In this document: positions 2,737 through 14,308 of the stretch, in pieces | Layout of the letters: every line of letters starts with the position of its first letter | Position numbering within the stretch: position 1 is the first letter of the stretch | Virus record (IMG/VR): IMGVR_UViG_2563366923_000005 | From: a virus | Taxonomy: Duplodnaviria; Heunggongvirae; Uroviricota; Caudoviricetes | Direction: 5' to 3' (one strand) | DNA length: 16,693 bases | Program-made: the position numbers and the translations under genes | Notes under the pieces: model-generated | The model's database searches: none | What the model was told of the DNA's origin: nothing | What the model saw: only the letters and a program-made list of their open reading frames with translations

Positions 2737-3180
2737 TCATTCATTTCTGCCCTCATACATCCAGTCATTGCGATGGGCTGCACGCTCTTCCTGCTCTCGG
2801 TACAGCCCTGCCTTACGGTTCGCTTTGGTGATGGGGTCTTGCTGCGTGGTCTTCTGGTTATGATGCATCTGGCATAACGGCTGGTGATTCCACTCAGGCC
2901 AGAACAGAACATCATCACCGCCGTCGATAGGGATGATGTGATCGACAATCTTTGCAGGAACGTAGAGGCCCAACTTCTGGCACTCGACACATAGCGGCTG
3001 ACGTTTCAGATACTGAGCGCGGTACTTCTCCCATGATGCTGAGTAACCACGGGCGCGACGGTGGCCGCGTCTGGCATCTTCCGCCCGCCAGGCTTCGCGC
3101 TTGTGCTCATCGCACTTACCAGACTTCACCCGCTTATTGCATCCCGGCTCAGTGCACCGGCGCATTGGTTGCCACGGCAT
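2737..3180 (-). CDS. HNH endonuclease (terminase-associated)
   Basis: 147 aa from ATG at 3178-3180, overlapping the connector stop (ATGA). Cys clusters (CTEPGC, CDEH, CVECQ) and an HNH-like core (LCQMHHNQK). Position between connector and terS is typical of HK97-like packaging modules. Confidence 0.85.
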   Translation of the reverse strand: MPWQPMRRCTEPGCNKRVKSGKCDEHKREAWRAEDARRGHRRARGYSASWEKYRAQYLKRQPLCVECQKLGLYVPAKIVDHIIPIDGGDDVLFWPEWNHQPLCQMHHNQKTTQQDPITKANRKAGLYREQEERAAHRNDWMYEGRNE

Positions 3181-3513: not shown

Positions 3514-4755
3514 TCATGACGCATCCTCCTTATTCTCAGAACCGGTACTGACCTTCACTTCCTGCTTCCATGCCTGGCTGTATTCGTCGCCCCCTTCACG
3601 CGGCGGCATCCCTTCGCGTTCGCGGGCTTCGTTCGGGTTCATGATCCCGTTCTTGATACCGCGCTCATAAGTTGCGTAACGTTCGGTTGGAGTGGCTCGA
3701 AGAAGATCGGCAGAGTCGAACTCCACCTGATAACGAATTCCGGGTACAGGCGATGCCACCAGCAACGCGGATTTAATCTGCTGCTCAAAGTTCGCCAGCC
3801 ACGGACGCATCGTCATGGTGAGAAATGCGCGGCTCGCCTCACTAAAGTTGCTGTAGGTGCTGTTGCTGTATTCCTGCAGGAAGATGGGGGACACGTTGAA
3901 CATGCGGGCAATGTCTTCAATGGAGAAGCGCCGGGAGGCCAGCCACTCAGCATCCTGATTGCTCATGCCAAGCTGCTTATAGTCCATGCCACCTTCAAGG
4001 ATCGGTGTTTTACCGGCATTTCTGGCACCTTTGTAGCGCTCAAGCGCGTCCAGCGCCTGTTTACCCTTCACACTATCGAGCCATTCAGCAGTAGTGACTA
4101 CGCCCGCCGCCATCATGCCATCTTTCATAATGCTGGCGCCGTGGCGCTGCTGGGCCAGACCTAACCCCAGCGCCTCACGGCAGATGGTGATCGGCGAGCG
4201 CCCCAGAAAACCATCATCGGTCGAGTAACGCAGGTGCAGAATCTCTTCCTGCAGGTAGGTGCGCACTGCCCCGGTAAACGGTTCAGTAACGGTGTATTTG
4301 TACTTATGCTGGCCGATACGCTCAGGAACAACCGCCCCCGGCGCATACGGATGCAGGGATTGCGGCTGGCCGTCACGGCCCCACTGGATCACCGCATAGG
4401 CGTTACCATTCAGCAGGCAATGACGCATCATCGTGCGCTTGAACTGGTAAGGCGTCTGACAGTCGTTCGGTTGCTCGTTAAGGAGAAAATCCACCGGGTG
4501 ATTGCTTAGCCACTCCCGCGCTTCTCGGCCGTTATCGTTGCGCACGCGGTAGAGGTAGCAGGGCATTGTTGCCACTGCCTCGCTGATAACTGATATGGCG
4601 TTCATGACCGCCGGCAGAGATTCCGCAGTACCGGCAGACACATATTCGCCTGATCCGGTATTTGGAATCCCTGCCATCGCCAGAAACTCATCAATCGTCA
4701 TGCTGCGCTGTTCGGATGGCTCAGATTTACGGCCAAAAGGCCAGATATTCCACAT
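3514..4755 (-). CDS. Phage portal protein (HK97 family)
   Basis: 413-aa ORF directly downstream of the protease gene with a 1-nt gap. Size and sequence character are typical of HK97-type portals. Confidence 0.88.
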   Translation of the reverse strand: MWNIWPFGRKSEPSEQRSMTIDEFLAMAGIPNTGSGEYVSAGTAESLPAVMNAISVISEAVATMPCYLYRVRNDNGREAREWLSNHPVDFLLNEQPNDCQTPYQFKRTMMRHCLLNGNAYAVIQWGRDGQPQSLHPYAPGAVVPERIGQHKYKYTVTEPFTGAVRTYLQEEILHLRYSTDDGFLGRSPITICREALGLGLAQQRHGASIMKDGMMAAGVVTTAEWLDSVKGKQALDALERYKGARNAGKTPILEGGMDYKQLGMSNQDAEWLASRRFSIEDIARMFNVSPIFLQEYSNSTYSNFSEASRAFLTMTMRPWLANFEQQIKSALLVASPVPGIRYQVEFDSADLLRATPTERYATYERGIKNGIMNPNEAREREGMPPREGGDEYSQAWKQEVKVSTGSENKEDAS

Positions 4756-4756
4756 A

Positions 4757-5317
4757 TCACAGCCCCGCTAAGTCAGCCCAGCGTCGGCGGTTATCACCAG
4801 CACGGCGCAGTTCAGGATGTTGGGAGAACAGAGAACGGTGCGCAATTTCCACGCCGGACTCAGGGTAAGCAGGCATAGAAGTAACGGTGATCTCCCGCAG
4901 CTCGGCAGCGGTAACAGTGCGAATATACGGTGTAGGAGTAATATCCCAGGACTCTTTCAGCGCACGGAATCCGAAGCTCATGCCGGAAATGTCTCCACGC
5001 TCCACCAGCTCCAGCACATCATTGCCAAGTTGGGTGTTTGGCGGGGTCAGCTCGAAACGCAGCCCGGTATCATCTTCGGACAACACCAGCGTGCCGGATT
5101 TGGTACGCCCCAGCAGTTGGGTATAGTTATGCTCGTACAGTGCACGCACATCGCTACCGGATGCCAGGCTGTCTTTAAACGCCCCCGGCGCAAACTGCTC
5201 GCGGAACTCATCCCAGATCACCTCTGACAGGCTGTTCCAGCGCACGGCATAGCCCACCAGCTTTTTGTTGCTGGCGCTCAGTTCGGAGGTACGGATTTCA
5301 AAATCGATTGTTTTCAT
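4757..5317 (-). CDS. Prohead maturation protease (HK97 family)
   Basis: 186 aa; the segment LVGYAVRWNSLSEVIWDEFREQFAPGAF matches the conserved N-terminal pattern of HK97 prohead proteases. GGAG lies 8 nt upstream of the ATG. Confidence 0.88.
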   Translation of the reverse strand: MKTIDFEIRTSELSASNKKLVGYAVRWNSLSEVIWDEFREQFAPGAFKDSLASGSDVRALYEHNYTQLLGRTKSGTLVLSEDDTGLRFELTPPNTQLGNDVLELVERGDISGMSFGFRALKESWDITPTPYIRTVTAAELREITVTSMPAYPESGVEIAHRSLFSQHPELRRAGDNRRRWADLAGL

Positions 5318-5368: not shown

Positions 5369-6535
5369 TCAGGAACCGGAACCGGAAAGCTCAAGCACCT
5401 TGATGGCGTTGGAGTCCACCACACCACCGCCTAGGTATTTATCGGTGTGCACCTTGTAGAAACCAGGTTCGGTGATGTTGTCGGGGCGGGTACGCACGCC
5501 AGTGGTGTGATCCACGATGAAGTAACCGCGCTTAAAGTCGCCGACTGCCAGGAACGCTTCACCCGCAGCCGCATCAGGCATGGTTTCCAGGTATTGAACC
5601 GGACGGCCAAGGAGGGTATCGGGAGAGTCAGCGACGAGACGATCACGCCAGATGTAATCCCCGTTGCCGTTTTTCAGCTTTTGCAGCGTAGCGGCAGTGT
5701 TGGAGTTCATCACCCATACGGCATTTTTGCGGTATTTGGCTTTCAGCTTATACAGCAGGTCGATAAGACCATCAGAGGAAACGGCAGCAGCCTCCATCTT
5801 CTCCAGCGTGCCGAACGGACGGGTTTTATCGCTGGTGGCCGCACGCGGATAGGACAGGAACCCTTTGGATTTTTTATCACCGTCGCCGTTCACAAAGTCG
5901 GTTTCTTCGGTAGCAGTGAAGGTGTCGGTAATTTCGGAAGACAGCCAGCCCAGAATATCAACTTCGGAGAAGTCGAGAATTTCCTGAGTGGTTTTCGGGT
6001 AGGCGTAGATCGGGTTGAGTTTGATATCAACGCGCTCCATCTTCGGTGTGCTGGTTTCGGTACGCGCTTCGCCTTCGGTGCCGCGCTTAACGGTAGTGCC
6101 GCCCACTGACACCAGCTTCTGGTATTCGTTGGTTTTGGTGGTCTTCACCGTGGCGATGGAGCGCATAACGCTGTCATCCTGCAACTGGCGCATGATCTCT
6201 TTGTCCAGCTCAGGGATAACGGTATAGCCGCCGTCAGCCTGCACTAACGTGGAGAGAGAGCGGGTATCGCCGGTCATGATGTAGTGGCGCAGCTCATCGT
6301 TGCTTACACCTTTACCTTCAACAGAAGTACCAGGCAAATTGCGCTGATCGTCGGCGACGGCCTCAAGGCGGGTAATTTCAACTTCAAGCGCATCAGCCTG
6401 GGCGCGGAGTTCGTCGAACTGCTTTCCCTCTTCATCGTTCAGGCTTCGCTTTTCGCTGTCAGCTTTTTCCAGCATGGAACGCATCTGGGTTTTGAGTGCG
6501 GTTTTCTGCTGGCGTAATTCAAGTAATTTCTTCAT
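5369..6535 (-). CDS. Major capsid protein (HK97 fold) with N-terminal delta (scaffold-like) domain
   Basis: 388 aa from ATG at 6533-6535 (MKKLLELRQQK). The N-terminal ~100 aa are coiled-coil rich, like an HK97 delta domain, followed by a capsid-like body. The track extension to 6652 is judged spurious. Confidence 0.9.
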   Translation of the reverse strand: MKKLLELRQQKTALKTQMRSMLEKADSEKRSLNDEEGKQFDELRAQADALEVEITRLEAVADDQRNLPGTSVEGKGVSNDELRHYIMTGDTRSLSTLVQADGGYTVIPELDKEIMRQLQDDSVMRSIATVKTTKTNEYQKLVSVGGTTVKRGTEGEARTETSTPKMERVDIKLNPIYAYPKTTQEILDFSEVDILGWLSSEITDTFTATEETDFVNGDGDKKSKGFLSYPRAATSDKTRPFGTLEKMEAAAVSSDGLIDLLYKLKAKYRKNAVWVMNSNTAATLQKLKNGNGDYIWRDRLVADSPDTLLGRPVQYLETMPDAAAGEAFLAVGDFKRGYFIVDHTTGVRTRPDNITEPGFYKVHTDKYLGGGVVDSNAIKVLELSGSGS

Positions 6536-7732: not shown

Positions 7733-8011
7733 TGTTGGTTCAGTTAGTTCAGTTGGTTCAATTTGTAAAGATGATTGTTTTATAATGATTATTTCCCGTT
7801 GAGTGAACCAACAAAGCCCCGATTTGAACCAACATTGGGTATTTTCATGTTGGTTCAGTCCATGAGGTTCTAAAATGTTGGTTCAAACTGCCCGTTTGTT
7901 GGTTCAAAACTGCTATTTGTTGGTTCAGTGTTGGTTCATTTTTTGACATTAAACCCATATAAAACAGCCACATGAACATAACCCATAGACACTGAACCAA
8001 CTGAACCAACA
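7733..8011. repeat. Iteron array / replication origin (ori)
   Basis: About 10 copies of TGTTGGTTCA or its reverse complement TGAACCAACA at 7733, 7752, 7804, 7824, 7849, 7876, 7897, 7918, 7929 and 8002, with AT-rich spacers, directly downstream of the replication gene. Confidence 0.8.
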
Positions 8012-8034: not shown

Positions 8035-10170
8035 TTATTCTTCTCCATCTTCCGCAACCTGGTGAAGCACATAAACGTTGATTTGACGCCCATCAATACG
8101 CGGGGATTTCTGCTGGTATCCACGCCCGCTGGACGGCTCAGAAAGCAAGCCAGCAGCGGCAAGCACGCGGGCAAACTGCCTGGCGTTAAAGCCCTGAGCT
8201 ATCTCCTTCTCAAACGTTGCGGGGAACGTATAGAACACCAGCGGCGAATCATCATGGCTGCTTTTGCGCTTTCGATACCCGGCCAGATCGCGAATCGGCA
8301 TACTGGACGGATCATAGGGCAACGGTGCAAAGCGGCTTAAACCGTAGGCATTCAGGAACGCCTCGCACTGCTCGATGATCTGCTGGTGCTCTTTGTTACC
8401 CGTGCCGAACTCTTTCACCCAGGCGTTAAAGCTATGCTGGATAGCGTCACGGCTGGCCTGTTCACTCCATCCGGTGATTGATGCACCAGTTACCAGCGCG
8501 GCTTCGAGGATTGCAAAGCGTTCGGCCACGCGGTGTACCTGCTCACCGTAATCCGCCGGGATGAGGCCGCGCCAGCGCGTTTGCGCGTCACGCACCGCCT
8601 GTTTAGCCTCCTGCTGGTTAGCCGCCAGCCATTTAACCCACTCACGCCCCGCCGCCCCGTGGTTATCAATCCAGGCTTCTTTCAGTGCGTCAGCATGAGC
8701 CTTGCCGTTTGGCAGACCGTTAAAGGCCGTCGATTTCTCCATAGGGATGTTGAGCAAGCGCACCAGTTGGCCCGCTTTCACTTTCAGCCCACCAGCAGCC
8801 AGGAAGGTTTCAATATCCATTTCCCCGGTGCTGATCGCCACAGTGCGCCAGCGTTTAAGCTCCCGATTGCCGCCCTCTTTGGCTCCCTGCAACTTTCCGG
8901 CACCGTTAAACAGGGTGTAAGCAGACGTGGCAACATCTTTGGCACTGCTGCCCTGTCCTACCTCATCAAGCGGTAACAGGCTGTCGTTATGCGCCTCCGC
9001 TTCGTTTGCTATGCCAAGCGCAGTACCGTACCAGGTAAGCCGCAACGCATCAGGCTCACCCCACAGGCTGCTCGCAATATTGGCGGTAGTGGTCTTACCG
9101 GCGCTCGACTGCTCGAACAAATGGACGCCGAAACCATCAGCACCCACCAGGCCAATAAGCGGCGCGGATAATGCCGCTGCCACGCCCAGCATCATGGACG
9201 GATTGCCCCCGGCCAGACGGGCGACGGAATCCCGCCAGGTGGCAGCAGTACCAGCAATGGCATACCCGGAAGATGCAGCGCTGCGACCGTTAAAGAGAAT
9301 GGGCGTCTCTGGATCACCAATCACTTCACCATCAGGCATGATATATGCGCCATGATGCCAGCCAGTGGTATGGGTGATAATCCATTCCCGATCAGTGCCG
9401 CTTTGCTGCAACCAGTCGGCCAGAATCGCCCGGAAGGTGCTTTTAGTGGTCACATTCACCCCACCAGCTTTAAGTGAGCGCCAGCCGTCGCGCTCACCGA
9501 TATCAGCACAGGGGATCGCCCTGGTAATATCTTCATGGCCACGCGGCGAACGCCAGCGCAAAACAAGATAGCGCTCTGCCCCGTCACTACCGGAGCCGAC
9601 CACCTCAAGAGGCGAGCACAGCCACGTTTCGTTATTGATGATCTCGCCACTATCCTTGTCCACCTTTGGCGTGATCCAGTACAGGCCATCGCTCCGGCTC
9701 TCCACGCGGGGTTTGAGTTCATCGCCCGGTTCAGGCTTTGGCTCCCGTTTTTTTACAGGCAGGTTCACCACAATGCTTTCCCCGCGTTCGGCCTCTTCTT
9801 TGAGACGTGGAAGCCTGCCCGTCCAGTCCTCCTTCGGCTGAGGCTCAAACATGCCATTAAACAGCCTGGCCTCTTTCACATCCGCCAGCGCCAGTTTGGT
9901 TGCGATAGTGCTTATCTGCATTTCGGAAAGTTCGCCAGCGCGGATCACACGAACACTGCGACGGCCGTTATCAACAATGTTTAACCGTTCCAGTTCCGCA
10001 AGTTGCCTTTTACCCAGATAAACAGGCGGTACATCATCCCATGCCCTTTTACCTTCGCTCTCGATCCAGTGCTGCACATGTGAATAGGCATCTTCACCCG
10101 CAAAGATAATCGCCTCTGTAAATTTATCTTTCGGCAGGAATTTAATATTCGGGGCATTCTTCATCTTCAT
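8035..10170 (-). CDS. Replication initiator / primase-helicase (DUF927-type P-loop NTPase)
   Basis: 711 aa with Walker A motif FEQSSAGKTT. Size and position (last gene of the operon, next to the iterons) match satellite or PICI Rep proteins. AAGGTG RBS; start overlaps the upstream gene's stop (ATGA). Confidence 0.85.
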   Translation of the reverse strand: MKMKNAPNIKFLPKDKFTEAIIFAGEDAYSHVQHWIESEGKRAWDDVPPVYLGKRQLAELERLNIVDNGRRSVRVIRAGELSEMQISTIATKLALADVKEARLFNGMFEPQPKEDWTGRLPRLKEEAERGESIVVNLPVKKREPKPEPGDELKPRVESRSDGLYWITPKVDKDSGEIINNETWLCSPLEVVGSGSDGAERYLVLRWRSPRGHEDITRAIPCADIGERDGWRSLKAGGVNVTTKSTFRAILADWLQQSGTDREWIITHTTGWHHGAYIMPDGEVIGDPETPILFNGRSAASSGYAIAGTAATWRDSVARLAGGNPSMMLGVAAALSAPLIGLVGADGFGVHLFEQSSAGKTTTANIASSLWGEPDALRLTWYGTALGIANEAEAHNDSLLPLDEVGQGSSAKDVATSAYTLFNGAGKLQGAKEGGNRELKRWRTVAISTGEMDIETFLAAGGLKVKAGQLVRLLNIPMEKSTAFNGLPNGKAHADALKEAWIDNHGAAGREWVKWLAANQQEAKQAVRDAQTRWRGLIPADYGEQVHRVAERFAILEAALVTGASITGWSEQASRDAIQHSFNAWVKEFGTGNKEHQQIIEQCEAFLNAYGLSRFAPLPYDPSSMPIRDLAGYRKRKSSHDDSPLVFYTFPATFEKEIAQGFNARQFARVLAAAGLLSEPSSGRGYQQKSPRIDGRQINVYVLHQVAEDGEE

Positions 10171-10535
10171 CAGTGCAACACCTTATTGGACATATCCGCG
10201 CCCAGGTCTTCATGCAGGTACTCAAGGTGGCAGCTTTTCACTATCTGCAACCCCATTTCGTTAATATCGCCATCGTCGGTAAAGCAGGTCAGCAGAATAT
10301 CCCGCAAACGCCTTAACCCCTCATCGCGCCCGAACTCTTCAAAGCAGCCAAAAATCATATACTTCATCAATACGTTTTCAGTTACGCGCGGCTCCAGCGT
10401 GAAGCGATAGCGGGCCATATACTTATCGCTTTCCACCAGCAAGGTTGCCGAACCGGTTTCCGCTGTCTGGTGAGCAATACAGGCTTCGGTCAGTTTGCGG
10501 AACAATGGGCCTATCACTTCAAAAATATCGGTCAT
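10170..10535 (-). CDS. Hypothetical protein (replication-operon member)
   Basis: 121-aa ORF; its stop overlaps the rep start and its start overlaps the upstream gene's stop. No recognisable motif. Confidence 0.6.
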   Translation of the reverse strand: MTDIFEVIGPLFRKLTEACIAHQTAETGSATLLVESDKYMARYRFTLEPRVTENVLMKYMIFGCFEEFGRDEGLRRLRDILLTCFTDDGDINEMGLQIVKSCHLEYLHEDLGADMSNKVLH

Positions 10536-10900
10536 TGTGGGATACCTCCGCTCATCTGAAATTTGCCAAGTAATGGGTGATACCAGTATGCAGAGCCATA
10601 TTTGCGCTTAGCACTGCGCAGCACCAACCGTGCCGCTTCCCTGAACTTTTCATCAGGTGCAACGAACCCGCCTGATTTCAGTTTAACCAGCATCACCCCT
10701 GTGTTTTTCGCCAGCTCCTCAGCCTTTTTGGTTGAGATACCGTATTCAGCAGCCAGTGTTGCTACTGGCGTCATACCCGGAGGGATTTCTCCGCCCTGAC
10801 TATCGGTAAGTGATTTAACCTGAGCCTCAAGGCGCAAGACCTTCTCAACCAGCAGATCAACGCGGTTAGCCAGTTCGTTAAACTTCACATTGCTGATCAT
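10532..10900 (-). CDS. Hypothetical protein, possible DNA-binding (HTH-like segment)
   Basis: 122 aa with an N-terminal coiled-coil-like region and a possible helix-turn-helix (TPVATLAAEYGISTKKAEELAK). Start ATG overlaps the upstream stop (ATGA). Confidence 0.6.
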   Translation of the reverse strand: MISNVKFNELANRVDLLVEKVLRLEAQVKSLTDSQGGEIPPGMTPVATLAAEYGISTKKAEELAKNTGVMLVKLKSGGFVAPDEKFREAARLVLRSAKRKYGSAYWYHPLLGKFQMSGGIPQ

Positions 10901-11124
10901 GGTCTTGCCTCCTGAGTTTCAGGGTCTGAAAAAGTAGAAATATCCAGTGAGTTTGCCAGTTCGTCAGAAAGGCGCTGAGCCAGGTGCGTTAAACTCATAA
11001 CATGGATACGCTCCGCCTCCCCCTTGATAGTTGAAAGGTAAGCAGCACATGACATGAGCGCAGCAACCTCTTGCGCCAGCAACAGCAAATCTTTTTTGCT
11101 GCGGTAGGTGTAAAAGTTATCCAT
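10897..11124 (-). CDS. Hypothetical small protein
   Basis: 75 aa from ATG at 11122-11124 (MDNFYTYRSKK). The track extension to 11184 overlaps the upstream gene and is judged less likely. Confidence 0.5.
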   Translation of the reverse strand: MDNFYTYRSKKDLLLLAQEVAALMSCAAYLSTIKGEAERIHVMSLTHLAQRLSDELANSLDISTFSDPETQEARP

Positions 11125-11314
11125 TGAGCGCCCCCTTTTTATCCTGCTCCAGCATAAAGGTGGCAATATCGCCAGAAATATCACGGGCCAGATCGATGAG
11201 GTTATCCCTCTCGTGACCTGAAATTTCGCAGTCTGAAATCACCAGAAGCAACGTTGCCAACTGACAAGCGCGGGACGTGGCTTTTTCTCTGCCAAGAGTT
11301 TCAATGTCATACAT
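11117..11314 (-). CDS. Hypothetical small protein
   Basis: 65-aa ORF whose start overlaps the Icd-like gene's stop. Part of a chain of overlapping start/stop codons. Confidence 0.5.
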   Translation of the reverse strand: MYDIETLGREKATSRACQLATLLLVISDCEISGHERDNLIDLARDISGDIATFMLEQDKKGALNG

Positions 11315-11519
11315 GTCGCACCTCCAGCATCTGAAATGCGTGGAACGGCAGGCGGGCAGCGAAAATAAGAGTTACGCCGGGCATGGTGTCGCGGGCTTCC
11401 CGTTCACTGGATGCGTTGACGTAAATCACCAACGGTTTGGCGGTAGGGTAGCGCTCAGAGGCGGAGAGAAAACGCCATGTAAATTCAGGGCGAGTTTGGG
11501 TAGACTGATTGTCAGCCAT
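11307..11519 (-). CDS. Icd-like small protein (P4/P1 family, putative cell-division inhibitor homolog)
   Basis: 70 aa from ATG at 11517-11519 (MADNQSTQTRPEFTWRF...FAARLPFHAFQMLEVRHV) with GAGGT RBS. The FTW and FAARLP pattern matches Icd-like proteins of P4-like elements as I recall them. The 250-aa track ORF is a spurious upstream extension. Confidence 0.55.
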   Translation of the reverse strand: MADNQSTQTRPEFTWRFLSASERYPTAKPLVIYVNASSEREARDTMPGVTLIFAARLPFHAFQMLEVRHV

Positions 11520-11709
11520 AACTGTTACCTCACTTAACGGTTTGTGGTCAGAGGCCCGGTTAGTGTTCCTAGCACTACCGGGCTTCGCACTTGAAAGGTG
11601 TATGTCACCTTTAATATTCAAACTAGCCCAAAGTGAAATACACTTCAAGCCTTTTTCTTTTATTTTTTTTGCGTATACTGAAATACACCTAACATAAGGA
11701 GTTTCAGTA
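11520..11709. promoter_or_regulatory. Divergent promoter / operator region
   Basis: Bulged palindrome GCCCGGTTAGTG-N7-CACTACCGGGC (11554-11583); 7-bp inverted repeat AAAGGTG-N5-CACCTTT (11594-11612); direct repeat TGAAATACAC at 11634-11643 and 11679-11688, the second next to a TATACT -10-like hexamer (11674-11679); long T tract at 11651-11670. Confidence 0.45.
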
Positions 11710-11895
11710 ATGGCAACAGGTGCGAAGAATGCAAAGTCACAAATGACCACAGTTCGAATCCCCCATGATGTGATGGAAGATATCGAACTTTTTAAACATG
11801 AAGGTGAAAGTACCGCAGGGTTTCTTGTCACTGCTGCGAAAGGCGAAATCAAACGCCGCCAGCGCCAAAAGGCAAAAGAAGAGCCAAAATCCTGA
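11710..11895 (+). CDS. Small ribbon-helix-helix-like DNA-binding protein (putative island regulator)
   Basis: 61-aa ORF with AAGGAG 9 nt upstream. TTVRIPHDVMEDIELFKHEGESTAGFLVTAAKGEI fits a beta-strand plus two helices (RHH/Arc-like), followed by a basic tail. Divergent from the replication operon. Confidence 0.55.
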   Translation: MATGAKNAKSQMTTVRIPHDVMEDIELFKHEGESTAGFLVTAAKGEIKRRQRQKAKEEPKS

Positions 11896-11925: not shown

Positions 11926-12018
11926 CTCATTCTTTGACCACCAGCATTAACCCTGGTATGCTTAATCTGTTTCGGTTTTTCGTAGTGACATTGGCAGCTC
12001 TGCAAAGTTGCCTTTGTT

Positions 12019-12798
12019 TTATTCAGCGTCAGCATTCGGCACCTCCGGCAATACGCCACCAGCGATCAGTTTCTTCGTTAACCACTGCTCCCCCTTCCCC
12101 GTCAGCATCGTTGTGAATGAGGCTCTTACTTCGCCATTCGTTTCATACGTTCCCTGGCGAACGGCAAAATAACCGCTATCGATATAACGCTGCATAGGCA
12201 GGTTGTGGCGCTGGCCACCGTTGATGAGAATCCCCTGTTGCCTCATCCAGCCGAATAATTTGAAGGGGCCAAGCCCTACGGCTTTGGCATAGTTGGAAAT
12301 GGAAATACCCTTGCTGATCTCCGCAACGCGATCAGCGAAATCAACTTTTGGCGCAGCGGCCACCAGCCGGTTTTCAAGTTCGCTTGCCTTTTCGGCCAGA
12401 TCAGCAGCAAGGCGCAGGGCTTCCGGTAACGTCTGGGGGATATTAGCGGCGGCTTTTGCCTGGCGTTCGCAGTTGATGAAGTAGCGGCGCACCTCCCGCC
12501 CTTTTTCGTTGCGCTCAACCATTGCCAGCTCTTTACCCATGTCGATGGTGATCAGGTAATCATGTGCAATTTGTTGGCGATATTTTGCGCTCCCCGAAAC
12601 GGGGGCGCTCAAATTTTCAACCACCGTAAAATCTACACCAGCAGTAAAACCATACTGGCTGATACGCCCCTTAATCCATGTGGTGAAATCACGCCCAACG
12701 CCGAGAAACTCATGGAGTTTTTTTGCACTGACCAGCGATACCGTCACGCCGCCAATATTTCCGGGGTTAACCGGAACCAACTCATTTAATTTTTGCAT
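12019..12798 (-). CDS. Phage antirepressor (AntA N-terminal domain + KilAC C-terminal domain)
   Basis: 259 aa from ATG at 12796-12798. HDYLITIDMGKELAMVERNEKGREVRRYFINCERQ matches the AntA signature; C-terminal NLPMQRYIDSGYFAVRQGTYETNGEVRASFTTMLTGKGEQWLTKKL matches the KilAC/ANT pattern. Confidence 0.85.
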   Translation of the reverse strand: MQKLNELVPVNPGNIGGVTVSLVSAKKLHEFLGVGRDFTTWIKGRISQYGFTAGVDFTVVENLSAPVSGSAKYRQQIAHDYLITIDMGKELAMVERNEKGREVRRYFINCERQAKAAANIPQTLPEALRLAADLAEKASELENRLVAAAPKVDFADRVAEISKGISISNYAKAVGLGPFKLFGWMRQQGILINGGQRHNLPMQRYIDSGYFAVRQGTYETNGEVRASFTTMLTGKGEQWLTKKLIAGGVLPEVPNADAE

Positions 12799-12808
12799 AG
12801 CGCCCCCC

Positions 12809-13093
12809 TTACGCGGATTTACGGTTGTAAGGGGTGTTGACGTTCTCAACAGCAGGTGGATTGCGAACCCACCAAAGAACATCTGACAGAAGCCATGCGC
12901 AACTATTACGGCCAAAGTGGCAGCGTGGCGGGAATTTACCTTCGTTCTCCATATACCAGCGGGTGGAACGGGAAAGGCTGGTTATTTCGAAGCATTCACT
13001 TTCACGAATACGGCGATCAAACTTAATGCCATATTCTGCGAGAATGGTGCGGCGTTGTTCTGGTGTTGGCGGGGTAAAACGAGTATTTGACAT
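12809..13093 (-). CDS. alpA: AlpA-family transcriptional regulator (excisionase-like)
   Basis: 94 aa; LSRSTRWYMENEGKFPP...GRNSCAWLLSDVLWW fits the AlpA HTH pattern. GGAGGA RBS. Immediately upstream of the antirepressor gene. Confidence 0.8.
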   Translation of the reverse strand: MSNTRFTPPTPEQRRTILAEYGIKFDRRIRESECFEITSLSRSTRWYMENEGKFPPRCHFGRNSCAWLLSDVLWWVRNPPAVENVNTPYNRKSA

Positions 13094-13274: not shown

Positions 13275-14216
13275 TTAAAACTTAAAGTGCCTACTAATGT
13301 ATGAGGTAATTGTGTCAACGCTCTTGACCGGGCATTGTCCGTCAGGAAATAAGTGCACTCTGTCGGAAAGTTCTCTGGCCCATGCTGAGAAATTGTAGCT
13401 CCCATCTTTTTTCAAGCACTTTTCATTGAAAATATCAGAATTTGTTTCTTTGAATTTTATTGCAGCACTTAAAATTAATAGTTCATTTCGTGCATGTTTT
13501 TCTTTTGCACTTTCTGAGCGTTTATTAATACTATTTTTTGAATCAGAGTCTAAATCAGGTCGTTCAATATCATTGAGCATTGGCAGCTTATCGAAATCAA
13601 GGCCGCTTTCCATAAGCCGTTTAATATCATAATTAGTAACCCATAAATCATCATACCCGGCTTCAAACTCATAAGGGTCGAAATTAAACCTCTTGCCATT
13701 AGCCTGATCGATAAAAGGTTGGGCTGGCAGAATCTGAATTACTGGAGTTTCACCGCCTGTGAGGCACGGGAAAAATCCGGGGAAAAAATCCTTCACAGGT
13801 AAAGATGACTCAAACTGATCGGGCATTACCCGCCACAGACCTAATGCAAAGCCATATCCGACAAGGAACCCTTTACTTTCTTGTTCCGTAAAGATGTCTG
13901 AACCAGATAATAGTTTATCAGGTTCAAAATAACGGCCATTAGTAAATTCAATAAAAGAGTGATTCGTTATCGCGCGGGTTTGCCCTGACATAGAATTAAA
14001 AGTACGAGGAAAATATAGTGATGAATACCAATCCTTTACATCATTAAAATCTTCACGAAGAAGGATTCGGCAGTGAAACCTTTTCAGCATCATGCTTATT
14101 TCGATTTTATTTTCAATAGCAAGGTTGATCAAATCTGACGGTTCAACCCCCAGAAATGATGCACCTCTGGACAATCTACAATATGAAAATGGAATCTTTA
14201 TTTCTTTTTCTGCCAT
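13275..14216 (-). CDS. Hypothetical protein, AT-rich cargo gene between int and alpA (candidate defence / accessory function)
   Basis: 313-aa ORF with GAGGG RBS. 27% GC in a sampled 60 nt, far below the head genes. No family recognised by eye. Contains YDDLWVTNYDIK, a D-x8-D-x-K arrangement weakly reminiscent of a PD-(D/E)xK core. Confidence 0.65.
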   Translation of the reverse strand: MAEKEIKIPFSYCRLSRGASFLGVEPSDLINLAIENKIEISMMLKRFHCRILLREDFNDVKDWYSSLYFPRTFNSMSGQTRAITNHSFIEFTNGRYFEPDKLLSGSDIFTEQESKGFLVGYGFALGLWRVMPDQFESSLPVKDFFPGFFPCLTGGETPVIQILPAQPFIDQANGKRFNFDPYEFEAGYDDLWVTNYDIKRLMESGLDFDKLPMLNDIERPDLDSDSKNSINKRSESAKEKHARNELLILSAAIKFKETNSDIFNEKCLKKDGSYNFSAWARELSDRVHLFPDGQCPVKSVDTITSYISRHFKF

Positions 14217-14308
14217 AACGCTACCCTCAACGCCCCTAATTAACTTGCGAGCCAGGCGGGTAGGGTTTCCCGCTTTTCGGTTGGCCGACCTAGACTCGCA
14301 AGACCAGT

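Follow-up and report, generated by a model that had tools for sequence, protein, structure and literature searches.

Results

Gene content of the locus

The sequence analysed here, referred to as the window, is the whole 16,693-nucleotide stretch of the IMG/VR virus record IMGVR_UViG_2563366923_000005. It is 100% identical to a locus of E. coli KFu015, where PGAP annotation places an island of about 15 kb between fis and yhdJ. The island carries int, alpA, primase, capsid, protease, portal, connector, HNH and TerS/TerL genes, with Pfam support, and no tail or lysis genes. In gene content it is a capsid-forming PICI (cf-PICI), helper dependence being inferred.

Within the island, a 61-codon gene diverges from a six-gene operon that begins with an Icd-like gene and ends with a DUF927 primase (Table 1). 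The 61-aa protein is annotated by PGAP as a YlcI/YnfO family protein and matches NCBIfam NF041551 at 60.6 bits against a cutoff of 30. The first gene of the operon matches the Icd-like cell-division inhibitor family NF033153 at 61.5 bits against a cutoff of 25, division inhibition itself being inferred from this match alone. Pfam gave no match for either protein. AlpA was identified by Pfam PF05930 and PHROG 2790. An Rfam search of the whole window at gathering thresholds found only the int-alpA RNA.

Table 1. Positions of genes and of predicted regulatory features in the window.
Feature	Position	Strand	Remarks
Five further operon genes	8035-11314	-	End with the DUF927 primase; each overlaps its neighbour by 1-8 nt
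Icd-like gene	11307-11519	-	First cistron; predicted target of the antisense RNA
Candidate -35 of the antisense RNA	11478-11483	+	TGTAAA
Predicted -10 of the antisense RNA	11501-11506	+	TAGACT, inside icd-like codons 5-7
SymR-like cis-antisense RNA (predicted)	11514-11594	+	About 76-81 nt; ends in a U-rich tail
SL1	11515-11548	+	Anti-Shine-Dalgarno CCUC in its loop; followed by a single-stranded UGGUCAGA box
icd-like ATG	11517-11519	-
Divergent spacer	11520-11709		190 bp
icd-like Shine-Dalgarno sequence	11528-11531	-
SL2	11551-11586	+	Interrupted palindrome GAGGCCCGGT / ACCGGGCTTC
7-bp inverted repeat	11594-11612		AAAGGTG / CACCTTT; flanks of O1
Predicted operator O1	11598-11608	-	GTGACATACAC on the minus strand; just downstream of the P_icd -10
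-10 of predicted P_icd	11620-11625	-	TAGTTT; 17-bp spacer
Predicted operator O2	11633-11643	+	GTGAAATACAC; in the P_icd spacer, abutting the -35
TGAAATACAC, two copies	11634 and 11679		Second copy abuts TATACT
-35 of predicted P_icd	11643-11648	-	TTGAAG
-10 of the 61-aa gene	11674-11679	+	TATACT
Predicted operator O3	11678-11688	+	CTGAAATACAC; overlaps the -10 and start site of the 61-aa gene
61-aa YlcI/YnfO-family gene	11710-11895	+	Predicted RHH repressor; predicted base-reading strand residues 12-16 (MTTVR)
Terminator-like hairpin plus T-run	11993-12012	+	After the 61-aa gene; plus strand only
AlpA-family gene	12809-13093	-	Known PICI activator; upstream of icd on the same strand
int-alpA RNA (Rfam)	14233-14300

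An earlier note made from the sequence alone had described the divergent ribbon-helix-helix (RHH)-like and Icd-like genes, the 190-bp region between them, a bulged palindrome, a 7-bp inverted repeat and two copies of TGAAATACAC, one next to a -10-like hexamer. Each of these features was found where the note had placed it, and the observation is confirmed.

Three predicted operators lie at two predicted promoters

To determine whether the repeat was more than chance, the whole window was searched for the 11-mer GTGAAATACAC. Only three matches with at most 1 mismatch were found, all within 91 bp, where about 0.27 are expected by simple calculation. The third, an inverted copy (O1), had not been noticed in the earlier note. 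Outside the switch region only 2-mismatch matches exist, at chance frequency, and operator-like sites elsewhere in the island were therefore rejected.

About 90 related loci were then compared. The three sites share the form xTG-N5-CAC, and in 46 loci from Enterobacterales and Gilliamella they hold near-fixed positions, matching each other with at most 1 mismatch in 39 of 46 loci. The start of O2 lies 76-79 nt (77 nt in 39) upstream of the RHH ATG in 41 of 46 loci, and 84-85 nt upstream in the five Serratia and Gilliamella loci.

O1 and O2 bracket a conserved leftward promoter (P_icd) predicted to drive the icd-like-to-primase operon. Among 44 distinct intergenic regions, TTGAnn abuts O2 in 42, and a TAnnnT hexamer lies 17-18 bp after the -35 in 42. 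The window's own P_icd -10 is weak and fell below the threshold of a generic promoter scan. That scan missed both promoters proposed here and listed only a plus-strand TTGAAA/AATATT pair, which is not conserved in relatives. The -10 of the 61-aa gene was invariant in one alignment of the region, and a TAnnnT hexamer sits at this place in all 44 distinct regions (TATACT in 34, TATAAT in 4, other TAnnnT hexamers in 6). No LexA box was found in the spacer, and LexA control was rejected.

Operator class follows the N-terminus of the 61-aa protein

The 5-bp core changes together at all three sites, giving at least 15 classes, and each core class pairs with one motif at residues 12-15 of the 61-aa protein. 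Examples are MTTVR with AAATA, QLNAR with AATCG, ALKAR with TGGCC, S(V/I)T(A/V)R with TCTTA and KLQAR with GACTC. An independent IMG/VR set reproduced three of these pairings and added new ones, with Gln12 always going with core AAT. In total, operator class follows these residues in about 60 loci. Because the operators and the gene lie side by side, their co-variation is partly co-inheritance, although concerted change at three sites cannot be explained in that way.

To identify which protein sets the specificity, closely related islands of the comparison set (designated L003, L004 and so on) were compared. L003 and L004 are about 100% identical from ylcI codon 40 through AlpA and carry the same AlpA protein, WP_032354309.1, yet they differ in the operators plus YlcI residues 1-39, and also in the first icd-like gene with SL1. 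L003 and L016 share operators and YlcI at 99.4% identity but carry different icd-like genes. Taken together, these comparisons leave the YlcI N-terminus as the only candidate determinant that tracks operator class. On this reading the L004 allele would prefer GTGAATCGCAC in place of GTGAAATACAC.

The 61-aa protein is predicted to have an RHH fold

An AlphaFold2 model (pLDDT 82.9) has extended residues 12-18, a helix at 19-28, a G32-E-S34 loop and a helix at 35-57, in agreement with the beta-alpha-alpha fold of about 45 residues that is typical of the Arc/MetJ/CopG superfamily. G32-E33-S34, corresponding to the G-x-S/T/N turn before helix B, is nearly invariant. An hhalign comparison, at a probability of only 21.6%, aligned K9-G32 with Arc K6-N29, placing M12, T14 and R16 opposite the Arc base-contacting residues Q9, N11 and R13. 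No curated RHH sequence model was matched: the window protein had no Pfam RHH match at E<=10, although the L047-type protein that occupies the same position matched HicB (E=9.7e-6, above its cutoff) and, weakly, RHH_1. A sequence-profile search of the PDB gave only noise (brinker and RPN8 at E>0.2), and Foldseek against the PDB gave only SeqA N-terminal matches at E>4.

A conserved structured RNA is selected on the plus strand

The palindrome at SL2 was analysed together with its flanks as a possible RNA. The plus-strand sequence 11513-11595 folds at -37.4 kcal/mol, with a z-score of -5.3 against shuffles. In the consensus fold of the related loci, 96.9% of cells are paired, against 39-52% for slid controls, and 13 of 20 pairs show double changes; no shuffle out of 500 reached the observed values. 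The covarying helices include SL1, SL2 and an outer GCCA/UGGU helix. To determine which strand is selected, wobble pairs were counted: G·U versus A·C cells number 142 versus 6 (58 versus 2 in SL2), and RNAalifold gives -22.1 kcal/mol on the plus strand and -4.1 on the minus strand.

A search against Rfam matched symR (RF01809) at 32.1 bits (E=5e-4, positions 11514-11589), and locus L033 matched at 24.9 bits; both are well below the gathering score of 61. In the reverse direction, a covariance model built here only from satellite sequences (R1) scored 80.3 bits in the window and matched the annotated K-12 symR end to end at 31.3 bits (E=1.2e-4). No C4, CI, IsrK or Esr41 match was found, the C4, CI and IsrK searches extending to E<=10; Esr41 is a separate Rfam family located in O-island OI-43.

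The predicted RNA is antisense to the icd-like Shine-Dalgarno sequence and start codon. A TAnnnT hexamer ends exactly 10 nt before the C of CAT in every leader of this type, giving the same layout as at symR (-10, then 7 nt, then AG(U/C)CAU). This hexamer is homologous in position to the symR -10 that was abolished by mutation (symE CATTCT to CACTCC; PMC1891008). The candidate -35 is weak. The U-tract after SL2 is interrupted in the window and was not called by a terminator scan, so the plus-strand transcript may read on.

The module is widespread

R1 found one copy at the expected place in every related locus, including loci that were not in its training set, and 47 strong hits among IMG/VR contigs. 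Of the 43 distinct hits with enough flank to read, 41 are followed by a small RHH-type gene. The module is present in the prototype island EcCICFT073, next to roxA, where the RNA corresponds to NC_004431.1:1380772-1380852, minus strand. A 401-bp query from the module matched 721 of 5,426 complete E. coli genomes.

Discussion

The region is best explained, with moderate confidence, as a two-layer negative-control switch of a phage satellite. The anatomy of the sequence, its conservation, the covariation, the strand under selection, the fold and the homologies are shown by the analyses above, whereas DNA binding, expression of either component and the route of induction are inferred. In the first layer, the 61-aa protein would act as an RHH repressor whose N-terminal beta-strand (residues 12, 14 and 16), presumably as a dimer, reads the three sites. 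Occupancy of O1 and O2 should block the sigma-70-type P_icd, and O3 would give autoregulation. In the second layer, proposed by homology with SymR, an RNA of about 80 nt starting near 11514 should block translation of any leaky icd-like mRNA and destabilise it. Because all six cistrons overlap, the operon is likely translationally coupled to icd, and loss of icd translation should spread to the primase through coupling and polarity.

The route of induction is speculative. No minus-strand terminator was detected between alpA and icd, and leftward transcription driven by helper-dependent AlpA would run antisense through the repressor gene and into the operon. AlpA overexpression is enough to induce EcCICFT073 (PMC6092414), and any repression must therefore be overridable.

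The interpretation in the earlier note is thus partly supported. Its reading of a divergent control region between an RHH-type gene and an operon beginning with an Icd-like gene, of the repeated TGAAATACAC as an operator element, and of possible RNA-based control is upheld. Its reading of the bulged palindrome as a protein operator is not supported, since this is the 3' stem-loop of a conserved RNA, and neither is a c4/CI-type processed leader on the icd strand. There are three predicted sites, not two, and the 7-bp inverted repeat is simply the flanks of O1.

Of the alternatives, the least unlikely is that the plus-strand RNA is the long 5' leader of a second, upstream-initiated transcript of the RHH gene, with antisense effects on icd as a by-product. 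The weak U-tract, the shared strand and the near-constant adjacency of RNA and gene are consistent with this. However, the RHH gene has its own -10 at a fixed position, and the homologous K-12 SymR is an annotated, discrete 77-nt RNA with no downstream RHH gene. In many relatives SL2 is followed by a good T-run, for example GTTGTTTTTTT, and the distance between RNA and gene differs between RHH subfamilies (about 55-65 nt against about 115-122 nt) while the RNA is unchanged.

It is also unlikely that another protein binds the repeats, whether AlpA, a known DNA-binding regulator of these islands (PMC6092414), the Icd-like protein, whose family PHROG 1743 is annotated 'transcriptional repressor', or the replication initiator, in which case the repeats would be iterons. 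L003 and L004 have different operator cores despite the same AlpA and helicase regions 93% identical in DNA, L003 and L016 have the same operators but different Icd-like genes, and in some loci the first cistron is not Icd-like at all, yet the operators and RHH gene remain.

A still less likely possibility is that the hairpins act in the minus-strand icd mRNA leader, as a c4/CI-like processed RNA, an attenuator or a translational operator. The minus-strand leader also folds better than shuffles (z=-3.1), and P1 and P4 offer precedents, but the 142 G·U cells would be A·C mismatches on that strand, its RNAalifold energy is poor and C4 gave no match. That the palindromes are DNA operators for a dimeric protein, with no RNA element, is very unlikely: co-evolving half-sites could produce the symmetric arm changes seen between relatives, but the directional wobble bias, the second covarying helix SL1 and the outer helix, the homology to a known RNA, and the hairpin sequence, which does not co-vary with any nearby protein class, all speak against it.

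Literature searches on YlcI, YnfO, DUF3950, cf-PICI repressors, and SymR together with satellites found no description of this module. It offers a candidate for the repressor that has been missing for satellites of Gram-negative bacteria, with a second, RNA-based brake, and proposes a function for the uncharacterised YlcI/YnfO and DUF3950 family. It supplies a natural recognition table of at least 15 strand and operator pairs for a predicted RHH protein, and extends SymR from a single chromosomal locus to a widespread, portable antisense cassette. The operator classes could predict cross-talk between co-resident satellites and help in designing PICI-based delivery vehicles. More tentatively, the two components may be the long-sought master repression system of Gram-negative PICIs, cf-PICIs and related satellites. 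The operator and beta-strand classes would then define 'immunity groups' that decide which co-resident islands cross-repress, and the chromosomal symE-symR pair of K-12 would be a domesticated remnant of this 5' cassette, with a LexA box in place of the RHH operators.

Among the closest known systems are SymR and symE of E. coli K-12 (PMC1891008). SymR and the predicted RNA are cis-antisense RNAs of about 77-80 nt with a promoter inside the first codons of the target, the layout -10, 7 nt, AG(U/C)CAUAACUG, and two stem-loops separated by a UUGUG(A/G)U(U/C)AG box, and both cover the target's Shine-Dalgarno sequence and start codon. In both, a repressor-controlled target promoter (here predicted) lies just beyond the 3' end of the RNA. 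The target here is an Icd-like protein at the head of a replication operon and not the AbrB-fold SymE, to which BLASTP found no similarity; the target promoter carries predicted RHH operators instead of a LexA box; and the context is a mobile satellite and not the hsd/mcr region.

In layout, and without any claim of sequence homology, the region recalls phage P22 immI, in which the RHH repressors Mnt and Arc act on a promoter for an early or anti-immunity operon, a divergent RHH gene is present and a small cis-antisense RNA, sar, covers the ribosome-binding site of ant. Here the operon encodes an Icd-like protein and a primase and not an antirepressor, and the RNA is SymR-like. In P1 immI (c4-icd-ant) and with the P4 CI RNA (Rfam C4, RF01695), an Icd-family first cistron is likewise held in check by an RNA masking its ribosome-binding site, and downstream genes depend on its translation, as the overlapping cistrons suggest here. 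However, c4 and CI are processed from the same transcript as their target and act through short a/b matches, whereas the RNA proposed here is encoded on the opposite strand and is fully complementary.

The Stl/Rpr master repressors of Gram-positive PICIs (SaPIs; PMC6092414) are also transcribed divergently from the excision and replication operon, and the allele-specific diversity seen here is consistent with element-specific control. They are larger HTH proteins, in contrast to the predicted 61-aa RHH protein, for which no helper-protein antirepressor is known; Gram-negative PICIs also need the activator AlpA, and an RNA layer is added.

YlcI (DLP12) and YnfO (Qin) of E. coli K-12 sit in lambdoid prophages in another gene context, and no published function is known for them or was found in the literature search. 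The window protein belongs to their NCBIfam family but does not reach the Pfam DUF3950 threshold, whereas its relatives L042 and L044 match DUF3950 above its cutoff.

Genomic context of the regulatory region

The sequence is 100% identical to the chromosome of E. coli KFu015 and covers an island of roughly 15 kb inserted between fis and yhdJ. Reading leftward on the minus strand, the island carries an integrase, a 313-aa protein of unknown function, an AlpA-family regulator and an AntA/KilAC protein. The only plus-strand regulatory gene follows, a 61-aa ORF annotated YlcI/YnfO, and then an Icd-like gene, four small genes and a DUF927 primase. A complete head and packaging module comes next (capsid, protease, portal, connector, HNH, TerS and TerL), with no tail genes. 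This is the gene set of a capsid-forming PICI (cf-PICI). An Rfam int-alpA RNA (RF02996), a known motif that is not known to have a function, lies between the integrase gene and the 313-aa gene and matches at 63.6 bits against a gathering score of 35.8. The 313-aa protein (PHROG 7144) has a weak DUF3950 match at residues 267-282 (E=0.005, below the cutoff), DUF3950 being the family matched by relatives of the 61-aa protein.

The observation made in the earlier note held in full, as each feature it listed is present in the sequence where the note had placed it. Both gene families were confirmed with NCBIfam, YlcI_YnfO_N at 60.6 bits and phage_ICD_like at 61.5 bits. The repeat pointed out in the note is not chance: the window holds only three matches to GTGAAATACAC with at most 1 mismatch, all within 91 bp, and the third, an inverted copy, had been missed.

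A 401-bp query spanning the intergenic region and the 61-aa gene was searched against 5,426 complete E. coli genomes, and matches were found in 721, mostly at 65-80% identity. Eight annotated E. coli loci and 37 loci from other Enterobacterales and from Gilliamella were collected, to which were added one further locus (L047), the prototype PICI EcCICFT073 and 80 IMG/VR contigs. The layout is the same in nearly all: int, an AlpA-type HTH gene, the small plus-strand gene, the intergenic region, the Icd-like gene, further small genes, then a primase or helicase. This layout spans classical PICIs, cf-PICIs and elements with TOPRIM-DUF927 primases.

Coordinates of features in the window and in related loci
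Feature	Sequence	Coordinates	Strand
Predicted operator O1, inverted copy of the repeat	window	11598-11608	
Longer palindrome around O1, AAAGGTG-N5-CACCTTT	window	11594-11612	
-35 of the predicted icd promoter, TTGAAG	window	11648-11643	minus
-10 of the predicted icd promoter, TAGTTT	window	11625-11620	minus
Rfam SymR match	window	11514-11589	plus
Stretch compared with the first codons of the unrelated first cistrons	window	11478-11519	
AntA plus KilAC gene	window	12019-12798	minus
313-aa protein of unknown function	window	13275-14216	minus
int-alpA RNA (RF02996)	window	14233-14300	minus
LexA box CTGTATATATCATCAG	L051 (E. coli K-12, NC_000913.3)	7913-7935	
Two full RNA copies and a third, weak R1 match	L002 (E. 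coli UC4224 island)	4254-4331, 5000-5079 and 5741-5797	
First cistron of four codons	L022 (Dryocola)	about 3800-3830	
Second, weak R1 match	L059 (IMG/VR contig)	10085-10168	
Second, weak R1 match	L076 (IMG/VR contig)	3044-3127	
Second, weak R1 match	L081 (IMG/VR contig)	6207-6290	
Second, weak R1 match	L087 (IMG/VR contig)	406-489	
Second, weak R1 match	L116 (IMG/VR contig)	4560-4643	

Three predicted operators change in concert

Alignment of the loci shows three sites of the form xTG-N5-CAC, designated O1, O2 and O3. Among 46 loci, O2 starts 76-79 nt (77 nt in 39) upstream of the ATG of the small gene in 41 loci, and 84-85 nt upstream in the five Serratia and Gilliamella loci. O1 lies 22-36 bp further upstream, 35 bp in the commonest arrangement and 22-25 bp in most of the others, and O3 overlaps the -10 of the small gene. 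Within a locus the sites match each other with at most 1 mismatch in 39 of 46 loci. Between loci the 5-bp core differs, and it differs in the same way at all three sites; observed cores include AAATA, AATCG, AAACA, ATACA, TGGCC, GACTC, TCTTA and TTGAA. Shared ancestry cannot produce concerted change at three separate sites, which requires selection for recognition by one specificity determinant. O1 is embedded in a longer palindrome whose flanks also change in step in relatives, for example CAAGGTG...CACCTTG and TGGTG...CACCA. In the minus-strand mRNA this palindrome would form a 5'-terminal hairpin, and it may be either an extended operator or an mRNA-stabilising stem.

Operator class follows the N-terminus of the small protein

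Each core class pairs with one sequence at residues 12-15 of the small protein. The IMG/VR set was used as an independent test; it reproduced three pairings and added new ones. Gln12 always goes with a core that starts AAT.

Pairing of small-protein residues with operator cores
Residues 12-16	Operator core
MTTVR	AAATA
QLNAR	AATCG
LTTVR	AAACA
ALKAR	TGGCC
KLQAR	GACTC
S(V/I)T(A/V)R	TCTTA
TVAAR	TTGAA
Pairings added by the IMG/VR set (protein motif, operator core)	
TQIASR	CTAAC
QIVSR	AATGC
QVNVR	AATAG
QISIR	AATCA
KMSAR	site CTGGCACCCA

Because adjacency could in principle explain the pairing of protein and site, recombinants were sought. Two of the collected islands, L003 and L004, are about 100% identical from codon 40 of the small gene onward, through the next gene, AlpA and into int, and carry the same AlpA protein, WP_032354309.1. 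They are also 85-100% identical further left, but differ in the operators plus codons 1-39, and in the first icd-like gene with SL1 (the first stem-loop of the RNA described below). L003 and a further locus, L016, share operators and the small gene at 99.4% identity but have different icd-like genes. AlpA, the Icd-like protein, the helicase and the gene downstream of the small gene are therefore excluded as determinants, and the N-terminal part of the small protein remains.

The small protein is predicted to adopt a ribbon-helix-helix fold

AlphaFold2 gives an extended segment at residues 12-18, a helix at 19-28, a G32-E-S34 turn and a helix at 35-57, with pLDDT 82.9. An hhalign comparison aligned residues 9-32 with Arc residues 6-29, although at a low probability of 21.6%, and placed M12, T14 and R16 on the base-contacting Arc residues Q9, N11 and R13. 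Residues 12 and 14 are the ones that vary between classes, whereas R16 is invariant, as is the outer TG...CAC of the sites. The L047-type protein that occupies the same position matches HicB and, weakly, RHH_1.

Predicted promoters overlap the operators

On the minus strand, TTGAnn abuts O2 and a TAnnnT hexamer follows 17-18 bp later in 42 of 44 distinct regions. O2 therefore fills the spacer of this predicted icd promoter (P_icd), and O1 lies at about +5 to +15, or over the -10 in the short-spacing class, both being standard positions for repression. On the plus strand a TAnnnT hexamer, usually TATACT, overlaps O3.

The palindrome is part of a predicted structured plus-strand RNA

To investigate the interrupted palindrome, 43 distinct sequences from just inside icd to O1 were aligned. 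RNAalifold on the plus strand gives three elements: an outer helix that pairs GCCA, the anti-start sequence, with the UGGU box; SL1, which has the anti-Shine-Dalgarno CCUC in its loop; and SL2, which is the palindrome itself. In this fold 96.9% of cells are paired, against 39-52% when the 3' partners are slid, and 13 of 20 pairs show changes on both sides; no shuffle out of 500 reached any observed measure. The paired columns hold 142 G·U cells and 6 A·C cells, and the same alignment read as the minus strand folds at only -4.1 kcal/mol, against -22.1 for the plus strand. Selection therefore acts on a plus-strand RNA, antisense to the icd-like leader, Shine-Dalgarno sequence and start codon, although the 3' end of this RNA is uncertain. 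The interpretation in the earlier note, an immunity or induction switch with palindromic operators, was supported in part; this palindrome is a stem-loop of the predicted RNA.

The predicted antisense RNA resembles SymR

The only notable sub-threshold Rfam match in the region is SymR, at 32.1 bits and E=5e-4, and it recurs in one of the related loci, L033. A covariance model built only from satellite sequences (R1) scores 80.3 bits on the window and, on loci outside its training set, 74 bits on L047 and 60 bits on EcCICFT073. In 14 kb of E. coli K-12 it matches the annotated symR gene end to end, at 31.3 bits and E=1.2e-4. The relationship to SymR rests on these two reciprocal matches of about 31-32 bits plus positional homology. 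The local layout is the same: K-12 has TAGAAT, 7 nt, AGUCAUAACUGCUA, and the window has TAGACT, 7 nt, AGCCAUAACUGUUA. Kawano et al. abolished SymR with silent changes CATTCT to CACTCC in symE, which is exactly this hexamer (PMC1891008). In the satellites a TAnnnT hexamer ends exactly 10 nt before the C of CAT in every leader of this type, and the codon that supplies the second base of the hexamer always ends in T, although it encodes Ser, His, Cys, Phe or Asp. The targets are unrelated, as BLASTP found no similarity between the Icd-like protein and SymE. In K-12 a LexA box lies immediately after the 3' end of symR, at the position where the satellites carry RHH operator O1.

The predicted antisense RNA and the divergent RHH-type gene form a modular unit

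The first cistron behind the RNA is Icd-like in most loci. In three loci, L028, L030 and L044, it is an unrelated protein (73, 161 and 113 aa, respectively) that keeps only the same first 13 or so codons (M-A-x-x-x-x-T-Q-T-R-P-E-F) as the Icd-like genes. That stretch holds the -35, spacer and -10 of the predicted antisense promoter, and the conserved N-terminal peptide may therefore be a by-product of nucleotide-level selection. In the Dryocola locus the first cistron is cut to four codons (MAKK, then a stop) and the antisense -10 sits at a different distance, yet the RNA itself and the operators are still intact (R1 at 72.8 bits); this may be a decaying copy.

In IMG/VR, R1 gave 47 strong hits. 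Of the 43 distinct hits with enough flank to read, 41 are followed on the plus strand by a small RHH-type gene, and these genes fall into four subfamilies: YlcI-like, DUF3950-like, and two classical RHH types ending in ...GIEPKG. The pairing of an antisense RNA with a divergent RHH gene is therefore the conserved unit, and each half can be exchanged. The E. coli UC4224 island carries two full copies of the RNA, two YlcI genes of different operator class and a third weak R1 match (36 bits); the module appears to be tandemly duplicated or recombined there, and an ash pseudogene lies beside it. In one group of IMG/VR contigs a second, weak R1 match of 28-31 bits with very low GC (0.27-0.30) lies about 30 nt downstream of the true RNA.

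Proposed mechanism and relation to known systems

RHH repressors and SymR are both known. What appears not to have been described is their combination as the control region of Gram-negative satellites, the functional assignment for the YlcI/YnfO family, the operator classes and the spread of SymR-type RNAs beyond symE; no description of any of these was found in the searchable literature. PHROGs lists the protein family as 'unknown function', and the founding paper on Gram-negative PICIs leaves the existence of a repressor open.

The anatomy, conservation, covariation, strand of selection, fold and homology are established by the sequence analysis, whereas transcription of the RNA, DNA binding by the protein and the mechanism that follows are inferred. 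In this model the RHH protein would occupy O1 and O2 and shut P_icd, and would occupy O3 and limit its own synthesis, while the antisense RNA would block translation of leaky icd-like mRNA. All six cistrons from the icd-like gene to the primase overlap by 1-8 nt, and the block should therefore spread to the replication genes.

The induction route is conjecture. No terminator was detected between 14400 and 11200 in the path of AlpA-driven leftward transcription, which could therefore run antisense through the RHH gene and into the operon. This would fit the published finding that AlpA overexpression alone induces EcCICFT073. The AntA plus KilAC 'antirepressor' gene, which sits between alpA and the RHH gene, could act on a helper repressor or on the RHH protein. 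The cf-PICI preprint calls the gene downstream of alpA a variable region of unknown function, and most related islands lack the AntA plus KilAC gene at this position.
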